Program-made: the position numbers and the translations under genes
DNA from: an uncultured Gammaproteobacteria bacterium
GTDB taxonomy: Bacteria > Patescibacteriota > Microgenomatia > UBA8517
Assembly (NCBI GenBank): GCA_964488535.1
Contig: CAZAUT010000004.1
Coordinates: forward strand, 3,409 to 67,408
Reading direction: 5' to 3'
DNA length: 64,000 bases
Shown: positions 203 through 43,357 of the stretch, piece after piece
How the letters are laid out: each line of letters begins with the position of its first letter
Position numbering within the stretch: position 1 is the stretch's first letter
The notes under the pieces: model-generated
What the model was told of the DNA's origin: nothing
The model's input: only the letters and a program-made list of their open reading frames with translations
The model's database searches: none

Positions 203-1861
203 ATGGTCAATTGTAAAAAGTTTAAGCAAAATTTTGCTTTCCTTGCGATACTTTTTCTCGGTATTGTTTTACGTTTTTATAAACTCGATTGGGGAGACGG
301 ACATTTTTATAATCCGGACGAGTATCACATAGTTGCTGCCGTTTCACGGCTCGAAGACGGTGGAATATTTTCCAATCCCAAACTTTTTTCCTACGGATCG
401 TTTACCGTTTACCTTATATATTTTACACACGTAATAATTACTTTCCTTATAAAAACAGGGCCTTTTAATATTTTTGTTATTGGGAGAATTTTGGCAGCTC
501 TTTTTTCCGTTCTTACCATTTTCAATGTTTATTTTATTTCAAAAAAAATATTCGCCGGTAAGAGTCCTCCGGCTTTAATTAGTGCACTTATCACAGCCTT
601 AACGCCGGGACTTATTCAACAGGCGCATTTTTTGACACCCGAGTCTTTTATGACCTTTTGGATAACCTTGTCTTGCTACTTTTTAATAAAATATTCCGCT
701 AAGCAAAGATTTCTTGATTTGATATTTTGCGCAGCAAGCATCGGTATTGCTGGGGGGACAAAGATCTCGTCGTTTGCCGTTCTTCCTTTGATATTGTCTG
801 TTATCATTCTTACTAACATCAAAAGAGGGGGGGCTCTTAAAAATCTTCGAAGCATGATTTTGTTTTCCGTAATCACTTTTATATTTTTCTTTTCCTCCTT
901 CCCCTACGCGATACTTGATTACGAAAATTTTAAAGGTACAACGCGCTACGAAAGCTCTCTTTCGTTCGGAAAACAAAAAGTTTTTTATACAAGAAGTTTT
1001 GAGGACACTACCCCCTTCGTTTTCCAAATGACAAAAATATATCCATATTCTTTGGGCGGGGTTTTGACCGTTTCTTCGTTCGTGGGACTATTATTTATAA
1101 TTGTTTCCGTTTTCACTAACAAAAAGCGACGCGGGGTGTTCATAATTCTAACCGGCTATTTCCTATCGTATTTTGTATTCAATTCGCTTCTTTATACCAA
1201 GTGGACACGTTTTGTCCACCCCACAATTCCCTTTTTGGTAATCTTTACATTCACCGGAATTCACGTCTTTTCGCGATATTTTAAAAACGACATTTTGAGA
1301 AATAGAACCAAAATAATTCTCTGGGGTTTGGTTACTATTCCAACTTTGGTTTGGGGGTTAATGTATTTTAATATTTATACTAATACTGACGTTAGAACTA
1401 CGGCAACAGAGTGGATAAATAAAAACATTCACAGAAGTAGTTTAATTCTTACTGAAACAGGCAACACCTTGGAAGTTCCTTTGTCGGGGGGTTACAAAAT
1501 AATCCCTTTTGATTTTTACAATCTCGACATAAATCCACAACTTTATTACAAATTGTTGGATCATATCGGTAATAGCGATTATTTCATTATCCAAAGCAGG
1601 AGGATTTATAAAAACCACGATAGTCAAAAGTTTCCGCTGGTTTATAATTTCTATAATTCCCTATTTTCAGGAAAGTTGGGATTTGAAGAAATTGCAAGTT
1701 TTAACTCCTACCCATCGTTGGAAATCGATAGTTGGAAATTTTCAATTCCTGACGAAGTCGCCGAGGAAACTTGGACTGTTTTCGACCATCCTGTTATAAA
1801 AATATATCGGAAGGTTAAATCCTATCCTAACAGTTATTATGTTGAGCTTCTTAAACGATAG
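203..1861 (+). CDS. GT-C fold membrane glycosyltransferase, GT39/PMT_2 (ArnT/PMT-like) paralog 1
   Basis: 552 aa and polytopic. The N-terminal luminal-loop motif YKLDWGDGHFYNPDEYHIVAAV (DE-type acidic motif) is typical of polyprenyl-phosphate-sugar dependent GT39/GT83 enzymes. It is paralogous to the 2003-3844 ORF. Confidence 0.6.
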   Translation: MVNCKKFKQNFAFLAILFLGIVLRFYKLDWGDGHFYNPDEYHIVAAVSRLEDGGIFSNPKLFSYGSFTVYLIYFTHVIITFLIKTGPFNIFVIGRILAALFSVLTIFNVYFISKKIFAGKSPPALISALITALTPGLIQQAHFLTPESFMTFWITLSCYFLIKYSAKQRFLDLIFCAASIGIAGGTKISSFAVLPLILSVIILTNIKRGGALKNLRSMILFSVITFIFFFSSFPYAILDYENFKGTTRYESSLSFGKQKVFYTRSFEDTTPFVFQMTKIYPYSLGGVLTVSSFVGLLFIIVSVFTNKKRRGVFIILTGYFLSYFVFNSLLYTKWTRFVHPTIPFLVIFTFTGIHVFSRYFKNDILRNRTKIILWGLVTIPTLVWGLMYFNIYTNTDVRTTATEWINKNIHRSSLILTETGNTLEVPLSGGYKIIPFDFYNLDINPQLYYKLLDHIGNSDYFIIQSRRIYKNHDSQKFPLVYNFYNSLFSGKLGFEEIASFNSYPSLEIDSWKFSIPDEVAEETWTVFDHPVIKIYRKVKSYPNSYYVELLKR

Positions 1862-1894
1862 TGCAGTTAAAATAATCACATGTTTTGTGAATTA

Positions 1895-1995
1895 TTGTCA
1901 TTCTGACTCCCGTTTGGCGGGGAAGAATCTCCCTACAAACGAGATCCTTCGTTTCAGTAAATTCAGCTTGGTTTCACTCAGGATGACGAAGGGGG
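1895..1995. repeat. MITE-like element with imperfect terminal inverted repeats (TTGTCATTCTGACTC ... CACTCAGGATGACGAA)
   Basis: About 100-bp intergenic element between two GT39 paralogs. The TGTCATTCTG terminus recurs in reverse complement at 27075 and 34757, and a related TGTCATTCCC terminus at 2557, 2640 and 36208. Confidence 0.4.
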
Positions 1996-2002
1996 TCTAA
2001 AT

Positions 2003-3844
2003 ATGAAAGTTTTTAACAAGATCATTCTTCTTTTTATTCTTTTCTTTGCTCTTGCGCTTCGTGTTTATGGGATCAATTGGGACCAAAATCAACACCTTCA
2101 TCCTGACGAGAGGTTTTTGACAATGACAACGGGTGCCATGGTTTGGCCGGAAACATTAGCCGAGTATTTAAGTCCTTCCGTTTCAAAACTAAATCCGTAT
2201 AACACAGGCACGATGTTTTATGTTTATGGAACACTTCCGACAACGATAGTCAAATATTTTTCCCGGTTCGAGTGGTTCGATGTCTTTCAATACAACAACA
2301 TTGCTCTAACCGGAAGATTGATCTCTGCGATCTTTGATATTGGGGTAGTTTACCTGATTTACTTGATCGCTAAAAATATATTTAACCAAAAGACCGGACT
2401 TTTGGCAGCGTTTTTATACTCCATATCGGTTCTCCCTATTCAGCTTTCCCACTTTTTTGCGGTTGATACGTTTTTGAACTTTTTCCTTGTTCTGTCTTTT
2501 TATTTTCTGGTTAAACTGTTAGATATTGCTTCGATTAAAAAAACATTGTCATTCCCGACTCGATCGGGAATCCATATGGAAAATATTTTTATTGATTCCC
2601 ACTTTTCCACCAGAGGCGGACTGTCGCGTGGGAATGACAGTGCTTGGTTCTATTCAGTGTTATTGAGCTTATCTTTCGGCGCCGCCCTTGCATGTAAGAT
2701 CTCCGCCCTGTATTTTCTCCCCGTAATTCTCTTGGGGTACCTTTTCTATTTCCTGAAGTTTCGCCCCCACCTACATACTACATACTATATACTATATACT
2801 GCTTTCTACCTGCTGCTTATTGCCTGCTTCGCGAGTGCGGCTTTCCGCATCCTTGATCCCCACGTTTTTACAGGCGGTCTTTTCCCGCCAAAAATAAGTC
2901 CGCAGTTTGTTCAAAACATTGAGTCGCTAAAGTCAATGGGGGTTAAGGGTTCAACTTTTCCTCCCGCAATCCAGTGGAACAACATAACTCCCATCATCTT
3001 TCCTTTAAAAAACATCGTTCTTTGGGGTTTGGGATTACCGTTGGGAGTTTTATCGGTTGTTGCAGTTATATACAAAATGATTGAAATGTTTATCGGTTTC
3101 TTTAAAGAGAATAATTTAAAAAGTTTCTATAATAATTTATTAGTAAAAGAATTTAATAGTGTGTTAATCCTCTTTTGGGTTCTCTTTCTTTTTTTCTACC
3201 AAGCCGTTCAACCAACCCCTTCCATGCGCTACTTCCTACCAATTTACCCTTTCGTTACCATTCTCTCCGCGCGTTTTTCCGAAAAATATTTGTTCCCAAA
3301 ATTTATTACTTCCCGCATACTACGTACTACATTCTACATACTACTGCTCTTATATCCCCTCTCCTTCCTCTATATTTACTCCCGTACCCATTCCCGCGTT
3401 TCGGCTTCTGAGTGGATTTATCAAAACATTCCGACCGGTTCCACTCTGTCTTGTGATGCATGGGATGATTGTCTGCCTTTGTCATTGGGAAAGGGACAAG
3501 TTATAAACCAATACAAAATTCTAACTTTGGAACCGTTCGTTCCCGACAGTATTGAAAAGGTAGGCAAATTTGAAAGCCAGTTAAAAGAGATTGATTATCT
3601 GATCTTTACCTCAAACCGCGCGTGGGGATCAATCCCCAAATGGCCGGAAAAATTCCCGTATATGGTCAAATTTTATGAAGACCTTTTTGCCGGAAAGTTT
3701 AACTTTGAAAAAGTTGCCGAAATAACATCTTACCCGACCATTCCGATACTGAACATTCCAATCCCCGACCAATCGTCGGAGGAAGCATTCACCGTCTACG
3801 ACCACCCGAAAGTGTTGATTTATAAAAACACCCAAAATAACTAG
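2003..3844 (+). CDS. GT-C fold membrane glycosyltransferase, GT39/PMT_2-like paralog 2 (carries in-frame repeat insertions)
   Basis: 613 aa. The N-terminal RVYGINWDQNQHLHPDERFLTMT motif is parallel to paralog 1. Relative to paralog 1 it has about 30 extra residues (TLSFPTRSGIHMENIFIDSHFSTRGGLSRGNDS), encoded exactly by an inverted-repeat element at 2557-2650. Confidence 0.6.
   Translation: MKVFNKIILLFILFFALALRVYGINWDQNQHLHPDERFLTMTTGAMVWPETLAEYLSPSVSKLNPYNTGTMFYVYGTLPTTIVKYFSRFEWFDVFQYNNIALTGRLISAIFDIGVVYLIYLIAKNIFNQKTGLLAAFLYSISVLPIQLSHFFAVDTFLNFFLVLSFYFLVKLLDIASIKKTLSFPTRSGIHMENIFIDSHFSTRGGLSRGNDSAWFYSVLLSLSFGAALACKISALYFLPVILLGYLFYFLKFRPHLHTTYYILYTAFYLLLIACFASAAFRILDPHVFTGGLFPPKISPQFVQNIESLKSMGVKGSTFPPAIQWNNITPIIFPLKNIVLWGLGLPLGVLSVVAVIYKMIEMFIGFFKENNLKSFYNNLLVKEFNSVLILFWVLFLFFYQAVQPTPSMRYFLPIYPFVTILSARFSEKYLFPKFITSRILRTTFYILLLLYPLSFLYIYSRTHSRVSASEWIYQNIPTGSTLSCDAWDDCLPLSLGKGQVINQYKILTLEPFVPDSIEKVGKFESQLKEIDYLIFTSNRAWGSIPKWPEKFPYMVKFYEDLFAGKFNFEKVAEITSYPTIPILNIPIPDQSSEEAFTVYDHPKVLIYKNTQNN
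2557..2650. repeat. MITE-like inverted-repeat element (TGTCATTCCCGAC ... GTGGGAATGACAG) inserted in-frame in a GT39 gene
   Basis: Termini are reverse complements of each other. The internal ACTCGATCGGGAAT also occurs at 36190-36207. The element is absent from the paralogous position in ORF 203-1861. Confidence 0.5.
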
Positions 3845-3846
3845 TG

Positions 3847-5352
3847 TTATTTAATATACATTGCCGTAAACACGTTCCACCCGCCTTCTGAATAAGTTAC
3901 AATTTTCTCTCCCGGAAAACATTTTTGATATATGTCGATCGTAGTTTTGTCGTTCGGATTAAAAATATATACAACGTTTCTCTCTTGAGGATCACATACG
4001 TTGTTGGCAAACCGACCGTCAATAATGTTTTCTCTACCCTCTTTATTTTTCAAATCATAATATATTGCTTTCGGTTCGGGCTGTCCCCATTCACCCCAGC
4101 AACAAGAGGTAAGACCAAGTTTCGTGTCTTTAGGTAGAAAGTCGATATAGTCCGAAATTATTTTCCCAAATGCAACATTTCTGTTTGGCAAATTTCGCGG
4201 ATACAAGACAAAATATTTATATAAATTCAGGGATGCAATGGCGGCAATTGTACAAATAAGAAACACTTTCTTGGTCCCCTTGTTACTAATTTTTTTGTAA
4301 AAGAAATAAATTCCCGAGGCAATAAATAAGTAGACAAAAGGGATCACTCCGATGGTCCTGCCGTTGTTCGGTGTCTCACGCAAATAAATACTCGGGGAAC
4401 AGGACGGGATGATTATAATAAAAAAAGTAATTATCATAAGCAGAAGCATTTTCTTGTCTTTTTTTAGCCAATAATAAAGCCCCACCATTAGGAAAACACT
4501 GCTTATAATATCAATATGTGTGGTGTTGGAAACGTTGGTTCTGAATCCCTCTTCCCCCTTAAAATGAAACATCCCCAGAGTTCTGACAACTCTAATTCCC
4601 ATTTTTTTATACGTATCAACCTGAAGAAATTGTTGTACTTTGGGTACCTTTGATCCCACATAACCGGTTGAAAAATTGTCTTTTTGAATATTGTAAACAC
4701 GAAAAATAATCAGAGTTGCCGGTAGAAACGCCAATACACAAAAGACCGCCATTTTATATTTCTTTTTAAATACAAGCCAAAGTAGTAATAATAACGGTAA
4801 GACAAATGTTTGAGGATATGTAAACAACCCCATGGAGGAAAAAAACACACCCGCTAACAAATACCGTAAGTCATTATTTTTTGTAAATTTTTCTGCAAAA
4901 AAGATCGTTGCGGACACAAGAAGAGGGATTGCAATTTGTGAATTTCCGACACGCGCCCAAACAATTGTCCAAAAAGAAATTGAGGATATTAGTGCCGTTA
5001 ACAAAGCAATTTTTTGTCCTGCCAATTTCTTTGCTGAAAGATATGTAAAATAAACCCCCAACCCACCAACCAAAACCGAAGCAATTTTATAGTGTATGTA
5101 ATTCTGTCCAATTACCAAAATTAGCGGAGCTACTAAGTAATGATAAAAAGGCCCTGCACTCAATGAAAAGCCCCATGGCCAATGACCGTCAATAATTCGA
5201 CTGACGTATTCATGAAGTATCGAAATATCCCCAAACCATTCACCCGGAATTTCATTTAGTTTAAAAAGGGCTGATATTAAATACCCGAATAATATCAATT
5301 GGATTGGATATTTAACCACAGTTTTTTTAATTATTGTACAAGCACGTGGCAT
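3847..5352 (-). CDS. GT-C family membrane glycosyltransferase (ArnT/PMT_2-like) paralog 3
   Basis: 501 aa with about 11 predicted transmembrane segments. The N-terminal region (GDISILHEY...YHYLVAPLILVIG) resembles the 4-amino-4-deoxy-L-arabinose transferase / PMT_2 fold. Assignment is by similarity pattern only. Confidence 0.5.
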   Translation of the reverse strand: MPRACTIIKKTVVKYPIQLILFGYLISALFKLNEIPGEWFGDISILHEYVSRIIDGHWPWGFSLSAGPFYHYLVAPLILVIGQNYIHYKIASVLVGGLGVYFTYLSAKKLAGQKIALLTALISSISFWTIVWARVGNSQIAIPLLVSATIFFAEKFTKNNDLRYLLAGVFFSSMGLFTYPQTFVLPLLLLLWLVFKKKYKMAVFCVLAFLPATLIIFRVYNIQKDNFSTGYVGSKVPKVQQFLQVDTYKKMGIRVVRTLGMFHFKGEEGFRTNVSNTTHIDIISSVFLMVGLYYWLKKDKKMLLLMIITFFIIIIPSCSPSIYLRETPNNGRTIGVIPFVYLFIASGIYFFYKKISNKGTKKVFLICTIAAIASLNLYKYFVLYPRNLPNRNVAFGKIISDYIDFLPKDTKLGLTSCCWGEWGQPEPKAIYYDLKNKEGRENIIDGRFANNVCDPQERNVVYIFNPNDKTTIDIYQKCFPGEKIVTYSEGGWNVFTAMYIK

Positions 5353-5400
5353 CAGATTAAATTTTAACCGTTTCTTGAAGAAGAAATCATCTTCTGAATA

Positions 5401-6162
5401 TTATTTCTTTTCAAGAACAAAAAACACCGCAGAGGAACCAACAACCGAACTATTGTATTTTTGTAAATATTTATAAAGCAGATTTTCGACCATAGTGAAG
5501 CGCTGCGGGAAAATAATCCACTTCTTCATTAGTTTATAACTGATCAGGGAATCGATAGATAGATAATGAAACAGTTCTATCAATCGAGATGTCTTCTTGT
5601 CGATATACCCGATCTTGTTTATTGTCGAAAATCCCGCTTTGTTAAACTCCTCCTCCCACTGCTTTCCAGACAGCAAATTAGGGTGTCTTTGAATTTTTCT
5701 CATCCAATCCAAGTATTTTTTCCCGAATATTTTTCCACCAAGTAAGTGTTCGTTCCACCTATCGGTCATGACACTTAAATAAAACTTACCGCCACTTTTT
5801 GTAACTCTACCTAATTCTTTCAAAACTTTTCCCAAACCCTCAACGTGCTCCATTACACAATTTGAAATTACCGTAGAAAAAGTCCCGTTTTTAAACGGAA
5901 GCTTAATACCGTCATACAAGTACACCTTTTTATAAATCCCGGATCTTTTTGCATCCAATAACACTTTCCCGTCAATGTCCACTCCCGCCTCAATTTTTTT
6001 CTTTTCAAAAAGAGTTTTGGCAAAAAAACCGTCCCCGCATCCAAAATCCAGAACCGGTTTTTTGAAAGGCATCAAGTTATGAAAAAGTTGAAGCTCATGC
6101 GGTCTGATAAAGCTATAAAACAGCGGTCGATTATAAAGATACGCTTTTAAAAATATTTTCAT
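5401..6162 (-). CDS. class I SAM-dependent methyltransferase
   Basis: Motif I LDFGCGDGFF plus VISNCVMEHVEGL (Methyltransf_11/25-like). Confidence 0.7.
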   Translation of the reverse strand: MKIFLKAYLYNRPLFYSFIRPHELQLFHNLMPFKKPVLDFGCGDGFFAKTLFEKKKIEAGVDIDGKVLLDAKRSGIYKKVYLYDGIKLPFKNGTFSTVISNCVMEHVEGLGKVLKELGRVTKSGGKFYLSVMTDRWNEHLLGGKIFGKKYLDWMRKIQRHPNLLSGKQWEEEFNKAGFSTINKIGYIDKKTSRLIELFHYLSIDSLISYKLMKKWIIFPQRFTMVENLLYKYLQKYNSSVVGSSAVFFVLEKK

Positions 6163-6195
6163 ATTTCTAAGACAACTCTGTTAATTCAACAGCAC

Positions 6196-6951
6196 CTATT
6201 TTTTAACAAAATAACGATAAAACACCCACCCTTTACCTGAATCATTATCGCGTTTAGTATTCAATATAATCGCCCCCTTTTGCAGTAAAAAATCTTCAAC
6301 CACTTGTCTTTTAATTCCATACATACCAAACCTATCAACCTTTTTTCCCATTAGATATCTCAAAACTCCAGAAAATCCTTCTCCGCGCAAGATGTTTAGA
6401 AATCTTTCCGGTATAATTCTTATCAGAAAACCTTTTATATTCCACGTCGGAGTACTTGGCAAATTAAACACCAACACCCCATTTTTTTTGAGGACCCTAA
6501 AAAGTTCGCTAATATAATTAAGGGAGTATTTTTGGGGGATATGTTGAAGAGTTTTATTACTATAGATAAAATCGAATGTATTGCTTCTGAAGATATTAAG
6601 ATTGTTCTCGTTGTTTAATATATATTCAACATCTTTATTCTGTTTCAACTTTTCTGCAAGTTTCACCATTGAAGTTGCTGCATCGACTCCAGTGGTATGT
6701 TTAAAATGTTTTGATAATGCTTGAGTTAAACGCCCAACTCCACATCCAAAATCCAATGCTTTGTCTCGTGAAAAAAATATTTTACTTCTTTCTAATTCAT
6801 TCAGAAGTTTTTTTACTTCCAATTCACCTTCTCTAAAAAAGTCACTCCTTTTCCACTTTCCATCTTTTTTATCATGATCCGTCAAAACCGCCCAAAACGG
6901 GTCGTGTTTGCCTAAATTATTCCAGTATTTGGTATTTGTTTTAAGGTTCAT
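6196..6951 (-). CDS. class I SAM-dependent methyltransferase
   Basis: Motif I ALDFGCGVGRLT, acidic residue after beta2, and VLVFNLP post-I motif. Confidence 0.7.
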   Translation of the reverse strand: MNLKTNTKYWNNLGKHDPFWAVLTDHDKKDGKWKRSDFFREGELEVKKLLNELERSKIFFSRDKALDFGCGVGRLTQALSKHFKHTTGVDAATSMVKLAEKLKQNKDVEYILNNENNLNIFRSNTFDFIYSNKTLQHIPQKYSLNYISELFRVLKKNGVLVFNLPSTPTWNIKGFLIRIIPERFLNILRGEGFSGVLRYLMGKKVDRFGMYGIKRQVVEDFLLQKGAIILNTKRDNDSGKGWVFYRYFVKK

Positions 6952-6952
6952 G

Positions 6953-8059
6953 TTATTTTAACAATTCGAGATACTTACTTTGGTTGTTGAATAAATCAAT
7001 GATTAATTTATTATTCTTAACATATCGTCTCTTATTCGTTAATATTTTTACTATCGCTTTCGCCAAATCTTTTACATTATTGATGGTAACAACTATTCCC
7101 ATCTTTGTCTGTTTGACTGGGATTCTTACTCCTGGTAAGTCGGTAACCACAACCGGGCACCCCTTTGCCATTGCCTCTATTTGAACCATTCCGAACGACT
7201 CCTGTCTTTCAACAGATGGCAAAACCAAAACGTCAATCTCTTTGTAAAACCCAAAGAGTTCTTCATCGGTTAATTTACCAAGTTCGATAATATATTTTTT
7301 GTACTTTTTAAGCAGCCCTTCAATTTCACCCACTTGGCTTCCGCCAATAATATCGCTTTTTGGTCCGACAAGAAATATTTTAAAATCGGGTAACTTTTCT
7401 TTTAAATATTTGGCTGATTCCAGCAAATACCCCACTCCTTTTTCTTTCGAAATTCTTCCTACATATCCTATCTTATATTTTATATTTTTATATTTATTTA
7501 AAACCTTGCTTTTTGCTTTTTTGACAACAACCGGAGGATATATAAAAGCAAGTTTCTTTTTAAAAAGCCCCAAAAACCACGAGTTGTCGGCGTAATCCTG
7601 GGAATTGGTCACGATCTTATCCGCCAAGAGACAAGTAATGAAATTACTCAAATAAACAAGTGTTGTACTTATAATATTTAGAACCCCCTTCCAAAAGGAA
7701 AGATCGCAATGGTAAGTTACAATAATTTTTTTCCTTAACACCCGCGCAATAATTGCCGTAACAAATCCTTCAAATTGCGGCAGATGAATGTTAACAACGT
7801 CTGCGTGTTTTACGGCATTAATAGCTTCCATAAAATAGGTTGGCATCAAAACTCCCCTTCCAATCGCAATCGGCGACCATACTCGATGTACTGTTACCCT
7901 GCCGCACTCTTCTTCTTTTTGAAGATTATTTTGGTGTCTTGAAGTTAAAATTAATACACCATGGTTTTTTGACGCAAAATATTCTGATAGATTCTTAACG
8001 TAATTCGTCAGTCCGCTGACGTTTGGAAGATAGTAGCTTAGAGTTATTAGAATATTCAT
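6953..8059 (-). CDS. glycosyltransferase family 4 (GT-B, retaining)
   Basis: C-terminal EX7E-type region ...VLVLPSVERQESFGMVQIEAMAKGCPVVVTDLPG. The 3' end is 2 bp from the upstream methyltransferase. Confidence 0.8.
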   Translation of the reverse strand: MNILITLSYYLPNVSGLTNYVKNLSEYFASKNHGVLILTSRHQNNLQKEEECGRVTVHRVWSPIAIGRGVLMPTYFMEAINAVKHADVVNIHLPQFEGFVTAIIARVLRKKIIVTYHCDLSFWKGVLNIISTTLVYLSNFITCLLADKIVTNSQDYADNSWFLGLFKKKLAFIYPPVVVKKAKSKVLNKYKNIKYKIGYVGRISKEKGVGYLLESAKYLKEKLPDFKIFLVGPKSDIIGGSQVGEIEGLLKKYKKYIIELGKLTDEELFGFYKEIDVLVLPSVERQESFGMVQIEAMAKGCPVVVTDLPGVRIPVKQTKMGIVVTINNVKDLAKAIVKILTNKRRYVKNNKLIIDLFNNQSKYLELLK

Positions 8060-8667
8060 TTTCCATCAAAATAACTTTTATTGTCCGAAACATATACCAA
8101 ATCAACATTTTTCACTTTCTTTTTTAAATTATTCAAAAGGGGTTTGTCATCGTCAATAAATACTTTCAGTTTCAATTTTTTTATCATCCTCTCTTTATAA
8201 ATATGCGGTTGCTCGTTATTCATATTGATATAAATGTGTTTAAAAAACTTTCTCATTTTGTAAAACTTAAACCACTCTTTTGTCCTTTCGTCTAAAAATG
8301 AATATCGGGAAGAAACAACAAACAGTTCGTATTTATTGCTTTTATAAAGTTCCTTAATAAGCTTGATATTTTTTCTTATTGGATGTCTGAAAAGTGGGTT
8401 GTGACTAATAATCCTTACGGATATTTCAAAGGCGGTTTTCGGGTAACGGTAGGAAAGACGGTGGTCAACCTTCTCCCGTACCAATTTTTCCATCAAAGAT
8501 TGGGGAACAAAAAATGGTTTACCGATAACAACTCCGTCAAGATCAAAACCGATTCTAATTTTTTTTCCGGTTGACATTGTCCTCCTGTAAAAATACATTA
8601 ACAAATGTAATAATTCAAATACGTACCAAATAAGTACCAATTTCAAATATATACCAATAAATACCAA
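8056..8667 (-). CDS. HAD-superfamily hydrolase-like protein
   Basis: N-terminal IRIGFDLDGVV (DxDG(T/V) nucleophile motif). There is a 4-bp overlap with the GT4 gene. Confidence 0.45.
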   Translation of the reverse strand: MVFIGIYLKLVLIWYVFELLHLLMYFYRRTMSTGKKIRIGFDLDGVVIGKPFFVPQSLMEKLVREKVDHRLSYRYPKTAFEISVRIISHNPLFRHPIRKNIKLIKELYKSNKYELFVVSSRYSFLDERTKEWFKFYKMRKFFKHIYINMNNEQPHIYKERMIKKLKLKVFIDDDKPLLNNLKKKVKNVDLVYVSDNKSYFDGK

Positions 8668-8773
8668 TTCCCAATTGGAAATTGGTGATCATTGGTGAAC
8701 ATTTGTATTTATTTGTATTTATTGAAAATTTAGCAAATCACTGACAGTGTATTAATTTTGCTATACAGTCATT

Positions 8774-33638: not shown

Positions 33639-33642
33639 GGAA

Positions 33643-34335: not shown

Positions 34336-34340
34336 AATTG

Positions 34341-34742: not shown

Positions 34743-34770
34743 TATGGTAACCCGTCAAGCCAGAATGACA
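34743..34770. repeat. dispersed repeat TATGGTAACCCGTCAAGCCAGAATGAC
   Basis: 27 of 28 nt identical to 27061-27088, where it lies inside a CDS. Confidence 0.6.
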
Positions 34771-34830
34771 AATGGAATCGGGGTGTGTAAGTCCTGCAAT
34801 AGTTAAAGTGCCTAAATTAAACAGGGAAAA

Positions 34831-35200
34831 CTATTTTGAAATCACTTCATTTGTAGGAATAATGCGGGAGCGGGTTTTTGAGTCCTGCGGAAAACCGGTT
34901 ATCAACAAATACCCTTGCCAACACCCTTTGGGAGGTACCATACGATGCCTCCCTTCGCAAATCTGAAGTTCCAAATGAGTCGTGTCAACCAATTTCGGCT
35001 CGTTCTTTACTTCGTAAATCCGATATTCCCCCTTCGCCAACTTCTGGTCGGTCTTGTGAGAGCGATGGGTTGTAACAAGCATTTCGCCAATTCTTTTCGT
35101 GAATACCCAAACAAAACTTTTCCCATCAAGGGTCAGAATCTTGGTGTCGTTTCTTGTTTCGACAAGCGAGTATTGGCCGGACTTTATTAATTTAATCATT
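34831..35200 (-). CDS. hypothetical protein
   Basis: ORF, with start placed at MIKLIKSG. No family recognised. Confidence 0.25.
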
Positions 35201-35261
35201 GTTAAATGGTTATATTGCCGTATTACTAAACGAGCGACAACCCTATCACCCGATTGGCCCA

Positions 35262-35440
35262 ATTAACCTAAATGGTACTTAAATCCTAAATCCTAAACTC
35301 TAAATCCTAAACAATACTTAATTTCAAATGTTTAAAACATTGTAATTTTGGATTTTGAATTTAATTAGAATTTAGAAATTAGAAATTAGTAATTTTTCCT
35401 AATATCCCAGTATCGTAATATCCTAATATCTTTCTTTTCC
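35262..35440. repeat. AT-rich tandem repeat tract (AAATCCTAAATCCTAAACTCTAAATCCTAAAC ... GAAATTAGAAATTAGTAAT ... TAATATCC repeats)
   Basis: Direct reading. GAAATTAGAAATTAGTAA recurs as its reverse complement at 31036-31060. Confidence 0.7.
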
Positions 35441-35441
35441 C

Positions 35442-35897
35442 CTACATTCCCCCATCTCTTAATCCCGTACATCTCCAGTTAATTTCTGCCTCAAGGTTGT
35501 CAACAAAAACGACACAAGCCGGGTTACACCCTTCTTTCTCTTCAATCGGGATAAAATCGATCCACCAGGTTCCTGTAGAATTATTGCAAAAATGGTTTGC
35601 TTCCAGTTTTCCGTCCATACATTTTGATTCGGCAATTTTCACAGCATCTTCATATACCATTTTATTTCCGGTCGGTGAATAACAAATACTTGTGTCCGCA
35701 AGGTCCTTTTCCGTATCTTCAACCGGATTTGGGTTACATCCGGTAACCGGCATCGGAGAATATGGATTTCCGTGTTTTATCCATGAACCGTTTTCACATA
35801 TCCAACCATCCTCGTTCCCTCCAAAGAGAAGACGGACGGTAACCAAACCGGCAACAACAATAATGGAAATTATCAACAAAGCAAGTATCTTCTTCAT
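35442..35897 (-). CDS. secreted Cys-rich small protein (signal peptide MKKILALLIISIIVVAG)
   Basis: Start placed at the internal MKKIL. The longer ORF N-terminus overlaps a GC-rich hairpin repeat. 12 Cys residues. Confidence 0.35.
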   Translation of the reverse strand: MKKILALLIISIIVVAGLVTVRLLFGGNEDGWICENGSWIKHGNPYSPMPVTGCNPNPVEDTEKDLADTSICYSPTGNKMVYEDAVKIAESKCMDGKLEANHFCNNSTGTWWIDFIPIEEKEGCNPACVVFVDNLEAEINWRCTGLRDGGM

Positions 35898-36251
35898 AAT
35901 ACAAGTATAAATAATAAACAGAAAACAGTAAACCCTCCTTCGTCCCGCCGTGCAGGACTTCGGGCGGATAAGGCAATAAACAGTAAATAAGAAACCTGAA
36001 GACAATACCTTTCCACAGCCAAAGCCTAGTGCCATACCATTTCAAACGCTTCGCGTTCGGATTGTCTGGTTCGGTCCTGCCTGCAGACAGGTCATCCCCC
36101 GCCAAGCAGTGGTTTTCTTGATCTAACGATATGCAAGAAGCACAAAACAGAAACGGAATTTGCTGCACCGGTTTCGCACTTTGTCACCAAACTCGATCGG
36201 GAATGACAGGGTGGTATTTCTGCGCAAACACGAAGCTGGTAATATTTCTTT

Positions 36252-37196
36252 TCAAGAAAGAGATTGGTAATACTCAATTGTTTTTTGGAGGCCTTCGTCG
36301 AGGGATACTTTTGGTTCCCAATTAAGAACCTCTTTTGCCTTTGAGATGTCGGGGCGTCTTTTAGTCGGGTCGTCTTTTGGAAGGGGCTTATAAACTATTT
36401 TCGATTTACTGCCGGTCAATTTTCGAATTTTATTTGCGAGCTCCATTACGGTATATTCTCCCGGATTTCCTAAATTAAACACTTCCCCGTTTGTATTTTT
36501 CTCAAGCATTGCCTTATATATCCCTTCAATAAGGTCGGATACATAGCAAAAAGATCTTGTTTGCTCCCCTTTCCCATAAACCGTCAATGGTTCTCCTGAG
36601 AGAGCTTGATTGATAAAATTACTAACCACTCTCCCGTCATCTTTTTGCATACGGGGACCGTAGGTATTAAAAATTCTGATAACCCGCGCATCGAGGTTGT
36701 ATTTATGAATGAAAATATATACAAGAGTTTCGGCAAAACGTTTTGCTTCGTCGTAACAGGAACGTACACCGAAAGTGTTAACGTTTCCCCAATAACTTTC
36801 TTTTTGCGGATGCTCCAGCGGGTCGCCGTAAATTTCGGAAGTTGACGCCAATAAAAACTTGGCTTTATTTTTTACTGCCAGTTTCAATAAATTGTATGTT
36901 CCGACGGAATTTGTAAGGGCTGTTTCTTCGGGGTGGTTTTGATAGTCAACCGGGGAAGCGGGAGAAGCAAGGTGAAATAAAAAGGTAAAAGAGTGAAAGG
37001 GTAAAAGAGTAAAAGGACGGGAAACATCGGCTTTAATGTACTTGAAGTTTTTATTTTTTAACAGGTGTTCGATGTTTTTTTCAGAGCCGGTAAGAAAATT
37101 GTCGAGGCAGATTACGTGGTACCCCCTCTCGAGTAAATATTCGCAAAGATGGCTGCCTAAAAAACCCGCACCACCTGTAACTAACACCCTTTTCAT
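36252..37196 (-). CDS. UDP-glucuronate decarboxylase (UDP-xylose synthase)-like NAD-dependent epimerase/dehydratase
   Basis: GGAGFLGSH Rossmann motif, [19 protein letters not shown] (YxxxK). Strongest similarity pattern is to the UXS/ArnA-decarboxylase subfamily. There is an in-frame TCTTTTAC repeat insertion near HLASPASP. Confidence 0.75.
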
Positions 37197-37549: not shown

Positions 37550-38923
37550 ATGGAGACTGTATTTACAGAGTCAATTTGGGGGGATGAAGGATTTTCGGCA
37601 ATTTTGTCAATGAAATCAATTCCGGAGATAATTAAAATTATCTCCCGCGACACCTCTCCCCCTTTATACAACATCACCGAACATTTGGCGTTCCAATATT
37701 TTGGAGTAAATGAAATAACCATACGCGGTTTGTCATTATTTTACTTTCTTCTGTGTCTTCTTTTTGTATATTTGATCACCTCCATGATCTGGAGTAGAAA
37801 AACAGGACTTTTTGCTGTGGTCGCAACAGCACTCAACCCCTTCTTTTTCATTTACGCTTTTGAGGGGCGGATGTATTCAATTTTAGCCCTCGGGGTAACG
37901 GCTTCAATGTATTTTTTCCTGCGGATCTTTTCATTTAAAGGCAAACAGATCGTAAATTATATCGGTTACGTTTTTTTTACGCTCTGGGCAATATATTCAC
38001 ACCATTTTGCTTTTTTTGCCCTTGCTGTTCAGGGGGTTTGGATCATAAAAGAATATTTTTCGGGAAAAAGAAAAACAGCTTTCGGGGTGGTTAAGTCGCT
38101 TGTTGTTGTTGCAGTTCTTTACGCTCCATGGCTCATACCACTGTATAACCAGATGACAATGGTCAAAGGCGGATTCTGGCTTGGTACGCCGACTTTAAAC
38201 GACCTCAAGGTCTTGATTTACGACTACCTCGGACAAGGAATAAAACTTATCAATTTCAATATTCCCGCGCTTAATATGAAAATTTATGAAATCGCCCCTT
38301 ATTTGGTATTTGCAACACTGCTTACCCGAAGGTGGTGGAAAAGTATTGAAAAAACGCTCTTTTTTCTGCTTTGGTTCTTTCTTCCGATCCTGATCACTTG
38401 GGGAATATCGCAAAAGTTTACATCGATATTTTTTAACCGTTATCTTTTATATTCCATACCGGCAGCAATGATAATTTTCGCATCATGCAGAAGCAAAATA
38501 TCTTTTGTTCCCCTTTTTGTGACATTGGCAGTATTTCTTATAATTGACGTCAATTATTTTCTCACTCCCAAAAAGCTTCCCTTCAGACAGATGTCAGAGT
38601 ATGTCAAGGAAACCCTCTCGCCCGGGGATTATCTTATAAATTGGAATTCTTCCGCCCACCATATTTGGGAGACAAAGTTTTACGGTATTCCCGCGCCTCT
38701 TTATATTCCCGGAGATGGGGAACTTCCCTATTATGTCGGAACGGCCTTAATGGAGGAGTCCGATATCATAAGAGAGATTCCGAAAGGAACAGTGAGGGTT
38801 GGAGTTGTCACAAGCGGATCCTTGGACGAAGTGCAACTTTCCGGATATTCTCTATCGGATAAAATGGAGATGGGGAATTTGAAAGTGGGATGGTTTACAA
38901 AGGCACTAGGCACTAGTTACTAG
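37550..38923 (+). CDS. GT-C membrane glycosyltransferase (GT39/PMT_2-like) paralog 4
   Basis: 457 aa and polytopic. N-terminal loop ...GDEGFSAILSMKS... with ArnT-like topology. Weak similarity. Confidence 0.45.
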   Translation: METVFTESIWGDEGFSAILSMKSIPEIIKIISRDTSPPLYNITEHLAFQYFGVNEITIRGLSLFYFLLCLLFVYLITSMIWSRKTGLFAVVATALNPFFFIYAFEGRMYSILALGVTASMYFFLRIFSFKGKQIVNYIGYVFFTLWAIYSHHFAFFALAVQGVWIIKEYFSGKRKTAFGVVKSLVVVAVLYAPWLIPLYNQMTMVKGGFWLGTPTLNDLKVLIYDYLGQGIKLINFNIPALNMKIYEIAPYLVFATLLTRRWWKSIEKTLFFLLWFFLPILITWGISQKFTSIFFNRYLLYSIPAAMIIFASCRSKISFVPLFVTLAVFLIIDVNYFLTPKKLPFRQMSEYVKETLSPGDYLINWNSSAHHIWETKFYGIPAPLYIPGDGELPYYVGTALMEESDIIREIPKGTVRVGVVTSGSLDEVQLSGYSLSDKMEMGNLKVGWFTKALGTSY

Positions 38924-39035: not shown

Positions 39036-40586
39036 TTGAACTGGAGAGTTTGCCGCCGAAAACAGATTCATTTTATTTATTATATGCACTATATCAAACA
39101 AATAAGCAATTTATTCCACATCCCCACCTGGTTATTTGTCGTTTTGGTAGGTGTAGTAATTTTCCGTATTCCTACCCTTTTTGAACCGTATTCGTATGGG
39201 GATGAAACAATTTATTTGACACTGGGACAAGGAATAAGGCGGGGGGTAATCTTGTACAAAGACCTGCACGACAACAAACCACCTCTTCTTTATCTTACTG
39301 CTGCCATTGCCGGAAATATTTTTTGGTTCAAAGTAGTACTTCTGACAACCTCACTTCTTACAGTCACATTGTTTTGGAAATTTACGGAAAAATTATATCC
39401 AAATATAAAACAATTTCCCATGATATCGACAGTTGTATTCGCGGTTTTAACTACCTTTTCCTTCATGGAAGGAGGCGTTGCAAATGCGGAAAATTTCATG
39501 ATTCTTCCGACTCTACTCGCCTTTTATATTTTACTTAACAGGGGCAATACTTACAAAAATATCTTTATTTCAGGGGTACTTTTGTCTATATCCACCCTTT
39601 ATAAAGTTCCTGCGATTTTTGATGTTCCTGCGATAATTTTTTATTGGCTTCTTTTTGTAAAATTCACAAAAAAAGATTTGTCTGCCTTGGCCAAAAAGAC
39701 GGGCGTATTGCTTTTGGGGATCGCCACCCCTATTGCCTTAACGTTTTTTTACTACACCCTAAAGGGGGCTTTCTATGAATATTTGGTCGCGGGATACTTA
39801 CAAAACTTCGGCTATCTGTCAAGTTGGAGACCGGACGACAAAACAGAGCCGTTTCTGGTTAAAAACGCCCCGCTTCTGATAAGGGCAGGAATAGTGTTTA
39901 TAATCAACGCCTGTCTTTTTACTCTTCGAAAAAAAGTTGATAAAAAATTTCTTTTTCTTGTTTCGTGGATCACATTTGCCGGATTTGCCATAACACTTTC
40001 CGAAAGGCCGTACCCTCACTACCTTTTGCAGGCAGCTTCACCAATATCTTCTGTTTTTGCACTTCTTTTTACGAGCGTTTCTATGGTCCAGGTTTATTCT
40101 GTTTTGGTCTTGACAATATTTTTCTTTATTCCGATGCATTACCGTTTTTGGCATTACAGAACAAGCTCATATTTGGGAAACTTCATCAGTTTTGCTGTTG
40201 GTAAAACAAATAAAAGTGAGTATTTTGATACTTTCGGCGGGAGAACAAGAGCCAATTACGAAATTGCGGGAATAATATCGCGAATGACAGATAAAAACGA
40301 TCGCATTTTTGTCTGGGAGGACTCGGCACAGGTGTATGCAATATCAGGCCGTCTCCCGGCAATTAAATACACATCGGGATACCATATCACCGATTTTTCA
40401 ACAATAGAAGCCGAAATTTCAAATTTGCAAAAGAACCCGCCGAAAGTTGTCGTAATTTTTCCCTCATCCAATCCCCCACCTGAATTAAACGCTTTTGTAA
40501 AAGGCAGTTACATTCTTTACAAAGAAACAGCGAACTACCAAATATTCAAATACGCTGGAGAATATTCAAGATTTATTATTGAATAA
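39036..40586 (+). CDS. GT-C membrane glycosyltransferase (ArnT/GT39/GT83-like) paralog 5
   Basis: 516 aa. Loop motif PTLFEPYSYGDETIYLTLGQ...DNKPPLLY (DE motif) after transmembrane segment 1. The real start is possibly the internal MHYIKQ. Confidence 0.5.
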   Translation: MNWRVCRRKQIHFIYYMHYIKQISNLFHIPTWLFVVLVGVVIFRIPTLFEPYSYGDETIYLTLGQGIRRGVILYKDLHDNKPPLLYLTAAIAGNIFWFKVVLLTTSLLTVTLFWKFTEKLYPNIKQFPMISTVVFAVLTTFSFMEGGVANAENFMILPTLLAFYILLNRGNTYKNIFISGVLLSISTLYKVPAIFDVPAIIFYWLLFVKFTKKDLSALAKKTGVLLLGIATPIALTFFYYTLKGAFYEYLVAGYLQNFGYLSSWRPDDKTEPFLVKNAPLLIRAGIVFIINACLFTLRKKVDKKFLFLVSWITFAGFAITLSERPYPHYLLQAASPISSVFALLFTSVSMVQVYSVLVLTIFFFIPMHYRFWHYRTSSYLGNFISFAVGKTNKSEYFDTFGGRTRANYEIAGIISRMTDKNDRIFVWEDSAQVYAISGRLPAIKYTSGYHITDFSTIEAEISNLQKNPPKVVVIFPSSNPPPELNAFVKGSYILYKETANYQIFKYAGEYSRFIIE

Positions 40587-40789
40587 TGACACGTTTCTTG
40601 CGTAAGGTTTTCTGCTTTCTTATTACTTTTGACAAAGGATGCTTGTTGCCGATAACGGATCCTCTGAATTTCTTTCACATATGACCAATCTGCAAACAAA
40701 AAGGTCTTTTTCTTTAAGCTTGGAGTTATAATGACAATCTTTCAAAAAGGAAAGAAAAGAAAGTGTGGGCGTGGTAAAATCAAGTTAAT

Positions 40790-41203
40790 ATGAAAAAGGG
40801 AAAAAAAATAAAATCGGTAAAAATGAAAGTTGCCGGGAAGCCTTTTTCGCTTGAACTGAAGAAAAAACTGCAGGCAAAGTCCATCCCTTTTCTTTACCCG
40901 GTAATGGCAGTTATTGCACTAAATATTATTCTGATAATTTTTATTGTTTTATCTTTGGACAAGTTGCCGCCCGAGGTTCCATTATATTACGGCCTTCCCA
41001 GAGGCGAACAGCAGCTTGCGTCTCCAGTCGAACTAATTCTCCCGCTTGCAATATCCAGCGTCTTTATTGGAATAAATGTTATGACTTCCCTTTTCATCAA
41101 ACCCGTTTATATAAAAAATATTCTTTCGGTAAGCGGTGTATTTTTCTCCGTAATGGCGATAATTACCGTTGTCAGAATAATAATGGTCGTATTGGGAGTT
41201 TAA
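40790..41203 (+). CDS. hypothetical small membrane protein
   Basis: ORF plus 3 transmembrane segments. Confidence 0.3.
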   Translation: MKKGKKIKSVKMKVAGKPFSLELKKKLQAKSIPFLYPVMAVIALNIILIIFIVLSLDKLPPEVPLYYGLPRGEQQLASPVELILPLAISSVFIGINVMTSLFIKPVYIKNILSVSGVFFSVMAIITVVRIIMVVLGV

Positions 41204-41252
41204 ACATTAATTTAATACATTACGATCCATTTAAATATCCTGCGTTCTGTAT

Positions 41253-42353
41253 TTGCAGACAGTGTCGGGAAATTTATTTGTTATGAATATTTTTGAACAT
41301 ATCATACTTCCTTTCTTGGTACCGTTTCTCCTGTCTTATTGGATAACTCCATCTGTAATCAGATTTGCAGAAAAAGCGGGTATTATTGATGACCCGTCAA
41401 AAAACAAACATCCGAAAGTAATTCACACCCGCCCTACCCCGAGAGGTGGTGGAATCGCTGTCTTTTGGTCAACTTTTATTGGTATTTTAATCTTTCTTCC
41501 TTTAGACAGGCATGTTGCTGCAATACTTATAGGGGCAGCCATATTAACTTTGATGGGGTTTTTGGATGACAAATATAATATTAACCCCTATCTCAGAATA
41601 GGTATTCAGTTTGCAGCTGCGGCCATACCAATCGCTTCAGGCATCGGAATTGGCTTTCTCTCCAACCCTCTGGGGGGTGGCATAATCGACCTTGCCAATC
41701 CGTATTTTTCGATTAATATTTTTGGTGTTTCGAAAAATATTTGGTTTGCAGGCGATGTTTTTGCTCTTTTTTGGATAGTTATACTGATGAATTTTCTTAA
41801 CATGGGAGCTAAAGGTGTTGACGGACAGCTACCCGGTGTTGCCGGCGTTGCTGCACTATCGATTTCCGCGCTTTCTTTAAGATTTTCTGCCGACATTACC
41901 GAATGGCCTGTTATCATTTTGTCTTTAATTGTTGCCGGGGCCTTTTTTGGCTTTTTGCCGTATAACGCATTTCCGCAAAGAATAATGCCTTCATTTTCCG
42001 GATCGAATCTGGCAGGATATTATCTTGGAATACTTTCAATTCTTTCTACTACCAAAGTCGGAACCCTGTTGATCGTTTTAGGAATTCCTTTGATTGATAC
42101 GGGCTACACCATTGTCCGCCGGATGGCTTCGGGAAAATCCCCTGTCTGGGGAGACAGAGGACATTTGCACCACAAACTACTGGATCTGGGGTTGTCTAAA
42201 AAACAAGTCTCTTATTTTTACTGGATATCTTCGGGGCTTCTTGGTATTTTTTCGATATTTCTTACCAGTACTTACAAATTGTATACTGTTATCGGACTGG
42301 TTGCCTTATTGGGAGGATTTTTTATAATTTATTCGAAAAAATCACGCACGTAG
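41253..42353 (+). CDS. polyprenyl-phosphate N-acetylhexosamine-1-phosphate transferase (WecA/MraY family, Glycos_transf_4)
   Basis: Conserved DDxxD-like GFLDDKYNINP, NFLNMGAKGVDGQLPGVAGVAA and PxxxxG motifs, about 10 transmembrane segments. Confidence 0.75.
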   Translation: MQTVSGNLFVMNIFEHIILPFLVPFLLSYWITPSVIRFAEKAGIIDDPSKNKHPKVIHTRPTPRGGGIAVFWSTFIGILIFLPLDRHVAAILIGAAILTLMGFLDDKYNINPYLRIGIQFAAAAIPIASGIGIGFLSNPLGGGIIDLANPYFSINIFGVSKNIWFAGDVFALFWIVILMNFLNMGAKGVDGQLPGVAGVAALSISALSLRFSADITEWPVIILSLIVAGAFFGFLPYNAFPQRIMPSFSGSNLAGYYLGILSILSTTKVGTLLIVLGIPLIDTGYTIVRRMASGKSPVWGDRGHLHHKLLDLGLSKKQVSYFYWISSGLLGIFSIFLTSTYKLYTVIGLVALLGGFFIIYSKKSRT

Positions 42354-42427
42354 ACATTGAGAACGTTTAACATCACGGCGGGGACCCTTTCAGGCAAACG
42401 GTAAAAATCAAGAAAAACAACGCCAAT

Positions 42428-43357
42428 ATGACCAATATTCTAATACAGATGATCCGCATCACAAGACCTGTTCACTGGATTAAGAACCTTTCATTATTCG
42501 CAGCAATCTTTTTTACATCCAAACTCTTTGAACCCAGACTCTTAAATACCGTCTCGATGGCCTTTTTATCCTTCAATTTTGTGACTTCCGCTTCCTATAT
42601 TCTCAACGACATAATTGATGCCGAAAAGGACAGAAACCATCCTGTGAAAAAAAACCGCCCTATCGCTTCCGGAAAACTGCCTGTTTATATTGCTGCAGTG
42701 GAAGGACTGTTTCTTTTGCTTCTTGCTTTCGTTTTTTCATATAAACTTAATTTCCTTTTTCACCTCTCGCTCACTGCGTATGTCGTTCTGCAAATATTGT
42801 ATAGCACTGTACTCAAAAATATTTCCATACTCGACATCCTTACAATTGCTTTTGGTTTTGTTATAAGAATATATGCCGGAGCTTTTGTCATTAATGCTCA
42901 CCTGTCGGTTTGGTTTCTGCTTTGTGTTATCTCGGCTGCACTCTTTCTGGCAGCAGGCAAAAGAAGATCAGAACTGAACATAACGGAATCCATCGGCGGT
43001 ACTACCAGAAAGGCTCTTTCAAAGTACAGCCGGGAACTTCTCAATTCGTATGTAACAATGTTCGGTAACGCCGCCTGGCTTTCGTGGGCTTTATTTTCTT
43101 TCTTTGAATCTCCCAGGGCTTCACTTGGGATATGGCTTTTTCTGGCAGAGATATCCAAAACAACAACAATCGATAAAATATTGATGTCGACTATCCCGAT
43201 TGCCATCTATGGGATTATGAGGTATGAAAGCATAATCTTCGAAGGAAAAAGCGAAGCTCCGGAAAAGATACTTATCGCGGATAGAGGACTGATGATTTCG
43301 ATCTTTCTCTGGCTGGGGATAGTTTATTGGGTATTTTATGTAGCGGTAGTCCCCTAA
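42428..43357 (+). CDS. UbiA-family prenyltransferase, decaprenyl-phosphate phosphoribosyltransferase (DPPR synthase)-like
   Basis: NDIIDAEKDRNHPVKKNRPIASG matches the NDxxDxxxDRxHPxKxxRPIAxG motif of the Rv3806c-type branch. 9 transmembrane segments. Confidence 0.65.
   Translation: MTNILIQMIRITRPVHWIKNLSLFAAIFFTSKLFEPRLLNTVSMAFLSFNFVTSASYILNDIIDAEKDRNHPVKKNRPIASGKLPVYIAAVEGLFLLLLAFVFSYKLNFLFHLSLTAYVVLQILYSTVLKNISILDILTIAFGFVIRIYAGAFVINAHLSVWFLLCVISAALFLAAGKRRSELNITESIGGTTRKALSKYSRELLNSYVTMFGNAAWLSWALFSFFESPRASLGIWLFLAEISKTTTIDKILMSTIPIAIYGIMRYESIIFEGKSEAPEKILIADRGLMISIFLWLGIVYWVFYVAVVP

Follow-up and report, generated by a model that had tools for sequence, protein, structure and literature searches.

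In mycobacteria, the decaprenyl-phosphate-arabinose pathway involves the UbiA-type enzyme Rv3806c, Rv3807c, the DprE1/DprE2 pair, Rv3789 and the Emb and Aft glycosyltransferases of the GT-C superfamily, together with an arabinogalactan primed by WecA. Here we compare the known systems of this kind with an operon at positions 39036-43357 of a 64,000-nt stretch of contig CAZAUT010000004.1 (the window), in which a UbiA-type enzyme is encoded beside a GT-C enzyme and a WecA-like transferase. For Citrobacter, Kelly et al. (2024; PMC11127046) showed by biochemistry a route that leads from phosphoribosyl pyrophosphate (PRPP) to polyprenyl-phosphate-ribofuranose and on to a GT-C enzyme, without DprE1/DprE2, and they predicted that it occurs widely. 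In Citrobacter youngae O1/O2, ORF15 encodes a polyprenyl-phosphate 5-phosphoribosyltransferase (PPPRS) with a fused HAD phosphatase (PPPRS-PRP), ORF14 a MATE flippase and ORF12 a GT-C enzyme of family GT136, while ORF13 or DprE1/DprE2 epimerases are optional in systems of this type (PMC11127046). As cited in the same paper, the arabinosylation of pilin in Pseudomonas aeruginosa PA7 combines a PPPRS, DprE1/DprE2 homologues and the GT-C enzyme TfpW (PMC11127046).

A preliminary description of the window had proposed a single glycoconjugate island of about 44 kb serving an undescribed polyprenyl-phospho-pentose pathway. It holds in part: both the enzyme and the overall idea were right, and "undescribed" and "one island" were overstated. 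The pairing of PPPRS with GT-C was established as a pathway type in Citrobacter in 2024 (PMC11127046), and NCBI already labels several Woesebacteria orthologues of the UbiA-type enzyme "decaprenyl-phosphate phosphoribosyltransferase", that is, decaprenylphosphoryl-5-phosphoribose (DPPR) synthase. The pathway type is not yet described for Woesebacteria, the Microgenomates lineage of the Candidate Phyla Radiation (CPR) to which the homologues of the window point, in agreement with the CPR-like host first suggested. No CPR organism is listed in the paper of Kelly et al. or its supplement (PMC11127046), and literature searches pairing CPR, Woesebacteria or Patescibacteria with either DPPR synthase or GT-C turned up nothing of relevance. 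We give a probability of roughly 0.6 to the reading that 39036-43357, with optional genes from 29403 onwards, is a Woesebacteria-wide operon for glycosylation outside the cytoplasm with a lipid-linked pentofuranose as the donor.

The UbiA-type protein (42428-43357, plus strand, 309 aa) carries the motif NDIIDAEKDRNHPVKKNRPIASG, and its branch within the superfamily was placed by the gaps between hidden Markov model (HMM) scores and between PDB scores. It marginally passes the NCBIfam equivalog model NF008978 (209.8 bits, cut-off 207), fails the decaprenyl-phosphate phosphoribosyltransferase model NF008977 (215.5 bits, cut-off 234) and scores 153 bits with the HAD-UbiA fusion model. The best prenyltransferase model outside the decaprenyl-phosphate phosphoribosyltransferase (DPPRS) group reaches 57 bits, and those for heme O synthase, UbiA, EboC and ChlG reach at most 36 bits. 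A sequence search of the PDB returned the Rv3806c entries 8j8j and 8j8k alone at E ≤0.01, with a full-length match at E 7e-36. The protein and its orthologues are 305-327 aa long and have no extra domain, so that no phosphatase is fused to them.

The residues of the active site lead in the same direction. In the Rv3806c structure, Mg2+ is bound by N73 and D77, the ribose by N73 and Q135, the 5'-phosphate by K28, Y70 and Y157, and the pyrophosphate by R22, K87, R90, K143 and Y138; the phosphoribose contacts are absent from the rest of the UbiA superfamily (PMC10994848). R22, K28, Y70, N73, D77 and K87 correspond in the window protein to R13, K19, Y57, N60, D64 and K74, and R90, Q135, Y138, K143 and Y157 to R77, Q122, Y125, K130 and F144, the last being a Tyr-to-Phe change that is also seen in some mycobacteria. 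All 11 equivalents are unchanged across 80 orthologues, and the Mg2+ ligands N60 and D64 of the NDxxDxxxD motif are invariant in 79 of 79 aligned orthologues. Because the equivalog match, the sole PDB match and the conserved binding residues agree, the protein should be read as a predicted polyprenyl-phosphate 5-phosphoribosyltransferase of the Rv3806c type. It is the only recognisable synthase of a lipid-linked monosaccharide donor in the window, where no polyprenyl-phosphate-hexose synthase (a short PF00535 GT2) was found.

A scan of species-representative genomes yielded 80 related loci, with UbiA identities of 46-76%. Essentially all of them have the same order, in which a GT-C gene of the 39036 type is followed by genes for a small protein with three transmembrane (TM) helices, the WecA-like protein and UbiA, and a gene for a PEGA/SH3 protein converges on them. 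The GT-C gene lies 1.8 kb upstream of UbiA on the same strand, an arrangement found in 74 of the 80 loci; the WecA-like gene is directly upstream of UbiA in 78. In 59 loci the 3-TM gene stands between the GT-C and WecA-like genes, with about 1 bp separating it from the latter. Across 57-78 species genomes the genes are co-directional, with median gaps of about 18, about 1 and ≤0 bp in the order given, and spacing this short is consistent with co-transcription. Genes beside this cassette are less constant: a GT2 gene is directly upstream in 55/80, a second GT-C gene occurs in 35/80 and a UDP-xylose synthase (UXS) gene in 24/80, and the PEGA/SH3 gene is present in 76/80. Median identity among related loci is 60% for UbiA and the WecA-like protein and 67% for the GT2, against 48% for methionyl-tRNA synthetase (MetRS). 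On a high-GC metagenome contig (L112, 358-8655), a UbiA of the DPPRS-like kind (26% identity, motif EADRRHPEKxxRP) is encoded together with a DUF2298 protein, a short GT2 (PF00535), a further ORF, a PMT_2 GT-C and a GT9, an independent clustering of this UbiA branch with GT-C genes in a distant lineage.

The GT-C gene of the operon (39036-40586, plus strand; the annotated 500-aa form starts at 39084) has no HMM match of any kind. Its AlphaFold model (pLDDT 89.1, pTM 0.89) retrieved GT-C enzymes exclusively in a fold search, with ArnT as the top Foldseek match. A YGDE motif after TM1 is invariant, and an HDNKPPL motif is also present. The polytopic GT-C fold and the acidic motif in the first extracytoplasmic loop, by which the superfamily is recognised, thus occur together, and the model supports the assignment as a putative GT-C glycosyltransferase at fold level. 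ArnT is likewise the nearest solved relative reported for Citrobacter ORF12 (PMC11127046). With ArnT and the PMT_2 enzymes (GT83/GT39-like) the window GT-C shares the fold, the DE after TM1 and a KPPL-type motif. The second GT-C-like membrane protein (37550-38923, plus strand) is PMT_2-like but stays below the cut-off (23.6 bits against 26.1; E 7e-5), and its WGDE motif is invariant. Comparison of the 37550 and 39036 families with hhalign gave a probability of 53-76% over about 346 columns.

Altogether the window holds seven GT-C-type genes, and PMT_2 is matched by four of its proteins. Of the five ORFs that had been listed as GT-C enzymes, three are supported by Pfam and 39036-40586 by its fold model, with 37550-38923 below the PMT_2 cut-off as just described. 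Their description as five paralogues holds for one pair, 203-1861 and 2003-3844, which are related at BLAST level (25% identity, E 1e-38); among the rest, kinship is confined to the level of the superfamily.

The WecA-like protein (41253-42353, plus strand) is a putative polyprenyl-phosphate sugar-1-phosphate transferase of the PNPT/Glycos_transf_4 group and passes PF00953 (E 6e-19), as expected of the WecA/MraY-family enzyme first named here. TIGR02380 for WecA is its best model, although the score of 92.6 bits is far below the cut-off of 326; MraY gives 48.9 bits. The DD and HLHH motifs are invariant, and the central motif MN..N.GAKG.DGQL is invariant yet atypical. The 3-TM protein (40790-41203, plus strand, 137 aa) gave no match in Pfam, NCBIfam or PDB searches with either the protein or its family, and a word-index homologue search found only the protein itself. 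An exhaustive HMMER search gathered 634 representatives at E ≤1e-3, all small stand-alone proteins of about 105-150 aa. They share a conserved extracytoplasmic loop, LPPExPL.YG..GE.QL (LPPExPLFYGLPxGEEQL), and a single-sequence AlphaFold model of the window protein consists of three long helices at low confidence (pLDDT 63). By its position, the protein is a speculative candidate for an accessory subunit or a flippase.

Like the Citrobacter system, the Woesebacteria cassette encodes a UbiA-type PPPRS beside a GT-C, and neither has DprE1/DprE2, which makes ribofuranose the default sugar of both. The cassette differs in that it has neither the fused HAD phosphoribose-phosphatase domain nor a MATE or SMR/GtrA flippase, and in that a 3-TM protein and a WecA-like initiating transferase are encoded inside the operon. 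When the three components of a Kelly-type system are sought, the clustered PPPRS and GT-C are there, and the phosphatase and flippase are not. The setting is different as well: the Citrobacter system makes an O antigen and is a serotype-variable add-on, whereas the Woesebacteria host is a monoderm-like CPR bacterium with no O-antigen context and its operon is conserved across the class. The mycobacterial pathway is matched by a UbiA that can be aligned with Rv3806c from end to end and keeps the substrate-binding residues, and by the combination of a WecA-type primer with GT-C enzymes that would use a lipid-linked pentofuranose. The DprE1/DprE2 pair is where the two part: no DprE1 (FAD-oxidase/ALO) or DprE2-like ORF was found in the 64-kb window or among the recurrent neighbours in the 80 loci, so the first impression that none was visible is borne out within the window. 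In PA7, as far as the citing paper relates, a PPPRS homologue is likewise paired with a GT-C and the acceptor is a protein (PMC11127046). Woesebacteria have no adjacent epimerase or pilin gene, and their conserved neighbour is instead the PEGA/SH3 protein.

From these parts a pathway can be outlined. At the cytoplasmic face, UbiA would transfer ribose-5-phosphate from PRPP to polyprenyl phosphate, a step strongly suggested by the conserved active site. By analogy, a phosphatase whose gene was not found would then strip the 5'-phosphate to give polyprenyl-phosphate-ribofuranose. The lipid-linked sugar would have to be flipped across the membrane, for which the 3-TM protein is, speculatively, the sole candidate in the operon. 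Linkage and fold suggest that the adjacent GT-C, with the second GT-C where there is one, would move the sugar to an acceptor on the outside. Most likely that acceptor is a glycan linked through polyprenyl pyrophosphate and N-acetylhexosamine and primed by the WecA-like enzyme, as WecA does in mycobacterial arabinogalactan, and the processive GT2 and UXS may provide a xylose-containing backbone. Since neither DprE1/DprE2 nor an ORF13-type epimerase is encoded nearby, ribofuranose is the simplest choice for the transferred sugar, in line with the original suggestion that the lipid-linked sugar may be ribose itself. Xylose, the other sugar then suggested, fits less well, as the UXS product UDP-xylose is a nucleotide sugar and belongs to another route than a lipid-linked pentofuranose. 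A bolder form of the proposal, which we consider unlikely as a whole, would give Woesebacteria and perhaps other Microgenomates a core, possibly essential wall glycopolymer akin to arabinogalactan. It would be primed by the WecA-like enzyme and extended or decorated by GT-C enzymes outside the membrane with ribofuranose from polyprenyl-phosphate-ribose, all from a minimal operon in which the new 3-TM family replaces the known flippases. The 5'-phosphate would either be taken off by an enzyme not yet recognised or stay on, in which case the polymer would be phosphoribosylated.

Several observations speak against a lipid-ribofuranose operon, and they can be weighed along with the other explanations. 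The cassette of the window lacks a phosphatase, a MATE or SMR/GtrA flippase and an epimerase, and none of these recurs in the 10-kb flanks of the 80 loci; MATE and SMR/GtrA-like Pfam families are missing from the entire 64 kb. Recurrent genes downstream of UbiA encode HhH-GPD, nucleotidyltransferase, DprA, Mg-chelatase-like and NUDIX proteins, with a sugar nucleotidyltransferase in 11 loci, and include no phosphatase or epimerase. The HAD-motif ORF, at a distance of 34 kb, goes with a GT4 gene rather than with UbiA. DprE1/DprE2, or a synthase of the Ppm1/GtrB type, may be encoded elsewhere in the genome, beyond the 64 kb. If so, the PPPRS step would be the same and distant genes would epimerise the lipid-linked ribose, to arabinofuranose by DprE1/DprE2-like enzymes or to xylofuranose by an ORF13-like short-chain dehydrogenase/reductase (SDR). 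Both routes are known additions to PPPRS systems (PMC11127046), and the window covers only 64 kb of the genome; we nevertheless hold such an epimerisation to be unlikely, given that no gene for it occurs in the window or recurs within 10 kb of UbiA in the 80 related genomes and that the sole SDR in the vicinity is orthologous to UDP-xylose synthase rather than being a GalE-like epimerase of lipid-linked sugars.

A different objection is that the clustering is mostly inherited synteny. Synteny as strong as that of the cassette is seen upstream for RmuC, MetRS and a small TM ORF, and downstream for GroEL, an M23 peptidase and a solute-binding protein. UvrD and FemAB also hold their order with the glycosylation genes; because such housekeeping neighbours are equally syntenic, gene order alone is weak evidence. 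The GT-C fold, moreover, is nearest to Dol-P-Man/Glc enzymes, the fold of the enzyme adjacent to UbiA gives no pointer to the pentose donor that had been proposed for it, and the cluster at the left end of the window is a distinct module. The GT-C enzymes might then take a polyprenyl-phosphate-hexose or lipid-linked oligosaccharide made elsewhere, for protein O-glycosylation or wall-polymer assembly, while the UbiA product would go to an unlinked acceptor and the WecA-like enzyme would start a teichoic-acid-like polymer. We think this distinctly unlikely: in nearly all loci the four genes are on one strand about 0-18 bp apart, whereas the backbone is looser, the window has no short PF00535 GT2 that could make the hexose donor, and the L112 contig shows an independent DPPRS-like/GT-C cluster in a distant lineage. 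It is very improbable that the locus encodes an Arn-like pathway, the route to 4-amino-4-deoxy-L-arabinose, in which a UXS/ArnA-like enzyme would make a UDP-pentose, the GT2 would load it on polyprenyl phosphate and ArnT-like GT-Cs would transfer it, with UbiA peripheral. UXS, GT2 and GT-C genes are adjacent in 24 loci, and ArnT is the top Foldseek match of the GT-C; but UbiA is in every locus while UXS is missing from most, the GT2 is a protein of about 500 aa with flanking TM helices and processive motifs (QxxRW, ED) that does not resemble ArnC/GtrB, and ArnB, ArnD, ArnE/F and an ArnC-type GT2 were not found in the window, which has only the UXS and the ArnT-like GT-Cs. Finally, the JGI label "4-hydroxybenzoate polyprenyltransferase" on many orthologues would make UbiA an ordinary aromatic or heme prenyltransferase of the MenA, UbiA, CyoE or ChlG type. 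This is effectively refuted by scores of at most 57 bits for those models against 210-215 bits for the DPPRS models, by the failure of other UbiA-superfamily structures to reach E 0.01 in the PDB, and by the presence of all the phosphoribose-binding residues that the superfamily does not share (PMC10994848). By model and PDB scores, then, the protein does not group with MenA, heme O synthase or ChlG, and its original placement in the DPPR-synthase branch stands.

To our knowledge, next to nothing is known about the chemistry of CPR/Patescibacteria envelopes, as hardly any of these organisms have been cultured. A class-conserved operon that combines a predicted lipid-ribose synthase, a GT-C and a WecA-like primer, and whose enzymes are better conserved than MetRS, offers a testable lead to the CPR cell coat. 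No new kind of chemistry is shown; what the operon would do is add a deep-branching, monoderm-like lineage to those with pentofuranose glycosylation systems, and it flags the 3-TM membrane protein family as a candidate for a missing component.

Genes were called for the whole window from an ORF listing with Pfam and NCBIfam scans, and every ORF named in the preliminary description is present where it was placed and in the family it was given. The optional genes of the operon begin with the GT2 (29403-30917, plus strand; PF13632 and PF00535), a membrane-embedded protein of about 500 aa with invariant D.D, IPEDW and QxxRW motifs. These motifs and the TM helices at both ends identify it as a processive synthase type and not an ArnC/GtrB type. 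In the window, variable genes over about 5 kb lie between the GT2 and the cassette. UXS (UDP-glucuronate decarboxylase; 36252-37196, minus strand) is an extended SDR that keeps the STSE.YG and YDE.KR motifs and one further motif; its match to human UXS1 has an E-value of 2e-105, and the second-best match one of 4e-50. By the UXS1 match and its decarboxylase motifs, the UXS-like gene first reported is a true UDP-xylose synthase. As a candidate for an ORF13-like lipid-ribose 3-epimerase it was rejected, the UXS1 match being about 55 orders of E-value better than that of any epimerase. The convergent gene beyond UbiA encodes a membrane-anchored PEGA and SH3_3 surface protein (43370-44239, minus strand; PF08308 and PF08239; one N-terminal TM helix), possibly a wall-associated protein or an acceptor.

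The single 44-kb island gives way to a conserved chromosomal backbone on which UvrD, FemAB, AddA, RmuC, MetRS and GroEL keep their order. Only the genes for GT-C, 3-TM protein, WecA-like protein and UbiA form a tight operon-like unit, and the region consists of two modules and insertions rather than one pathway. A metagenome scan with DUF2298 recovered a backbone of GT-Cs, methyltransferase, GT4 and HAD ORF, then DUF2298, UvrD, FemAB, AddA, RmuC, MetRS and the right-hand cassette. The left part, 203-10813, is a separate glycosylation module on the same syntenic backbone. It starts with three PMT_2-type GT-C genes, partly conserved upstream of DUF2298 in relatives: 203-1861 and 2003-3844 (both plus strand, both above the gathering scores of PMT_2 and PMT) and 3847-5352 (minus strand, above that of PMT_2). 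Profile matches identify two class-I S-adenosylmethionine-dependent methyltransferases (5401-6162 and 6196-6951) and a GT4 (6953-8059), and a HAD-motif protein (8056-8667) follows, all on the minus strand. The module ends with the DUF2298/chlor_Arch_YYY polytopic membrane protein (8774-10813, plus strand; PF10060 E 3e-97, TIGR03662 E 8e-140), which is presumed to be GT-C-like; a literature search found no functional work on DUF2298.

The HAD-motif protein had been called a HAD-like hydrolase, which its DLDGV, VVSSR and FIDDD motifs bear out and its HMM matches do not, as permissive NCBIfam and Pfam searches gave only sub-threshold hits to LNS2 and 5'-nucleotidase. NF006088, the model for HAD-UbiA fusions, gave no match, and we do not claim the protein as the DPPR phosphatase. 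In ten loci (L083, L089, L099, L106, L116, L121, L122, L127, L128 and L131) relatives with 27-66% identity always lie beside GT4 and near DUF2298, in two arrangements. This suggests a pair of GT4 and phosphatase like those of sugar-phosphate synthase/phosphatase systems, independent of UbiA.

Interspersed among the glycosylation genes are those for UvrD, FemAB, DedA, a histidine phosphatase, two NUDIX proteins, an AddA-like helicase-nuclease, RmuC, MetRS and others. Two blocks, 14852-24907 and 30950-36200, do not occur on the syntenic backbone in relatives and appear to be lineage-specific insertions, and a GT87/DUF2029-like GT-C gene (26523-27806, plus strand; PF09594 E 2e-11) is a variable insertion found at the same position in 1 of the 80 related loci. 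The first block holds genes for DedA, a CobC-like histidine phosphatase, NUDIX, HD and TrpR-like proteins, an aldehyde dehydrogenase, a serine hydrolase and an FR47 GNAT protein, and the second a pentapeptide-repeat protein, four ORFs without assignment and a NUDIX protein with a winged helix-turn-helix domain. For the histidine-phosphatase ORF (15559-16131) the best model is the alpha-ribazole-5'-phosphate phosphatase CobC (E 1e-23, below the cut-off). CobC removes the 5'-phosphate from a ribofuranoside, which makes this ORF a speculative candidate, by analogy, for the DPPR phosphatase; in relatives the ORF type is unlinked to UbiA except at one locus (L005). A NUDIX ORF in the same block (16458-17246, listed with a TTG start) runs about 320 bp into the AddA-like gene (16927-20064) at its 3' end, and the NUDIX start is probably over-extended.

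Among the related loci, L002, L007, L028, L050, L078 and about 30 more come from records titled "uncultured Gammaproteobacteria bacterium" (SRP.../binchicken isolates). The titles look mislabelled because gene order and proteins 55-76% identical match named Woesebacteria metagenome-assembled genomes. A scan for promoters and terminators in the window gave counts close to shuffle expectation and was uninformative. The other 20 kb are housekeeping, with genes for tRNA-Cys, GroEL, TsaC-TsaE, TsaD, a class-I tRNA synthetase, L25, YidC and RnpA. At 53623-55944, a single ORF of 360 aa joins Sua5/TsaC to TsaE, with a TsaD of 401 aa directly after it; related loci have the fusion downstream as well (for example L052, 19602-20654). 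The FemAB-family peptidyltransferase gene (13493-14590) adjoins UvrD in relatives and is at times duplicated; its conservation implies a branched or bridged peptidoglycan in the Woesebacteria lineage.

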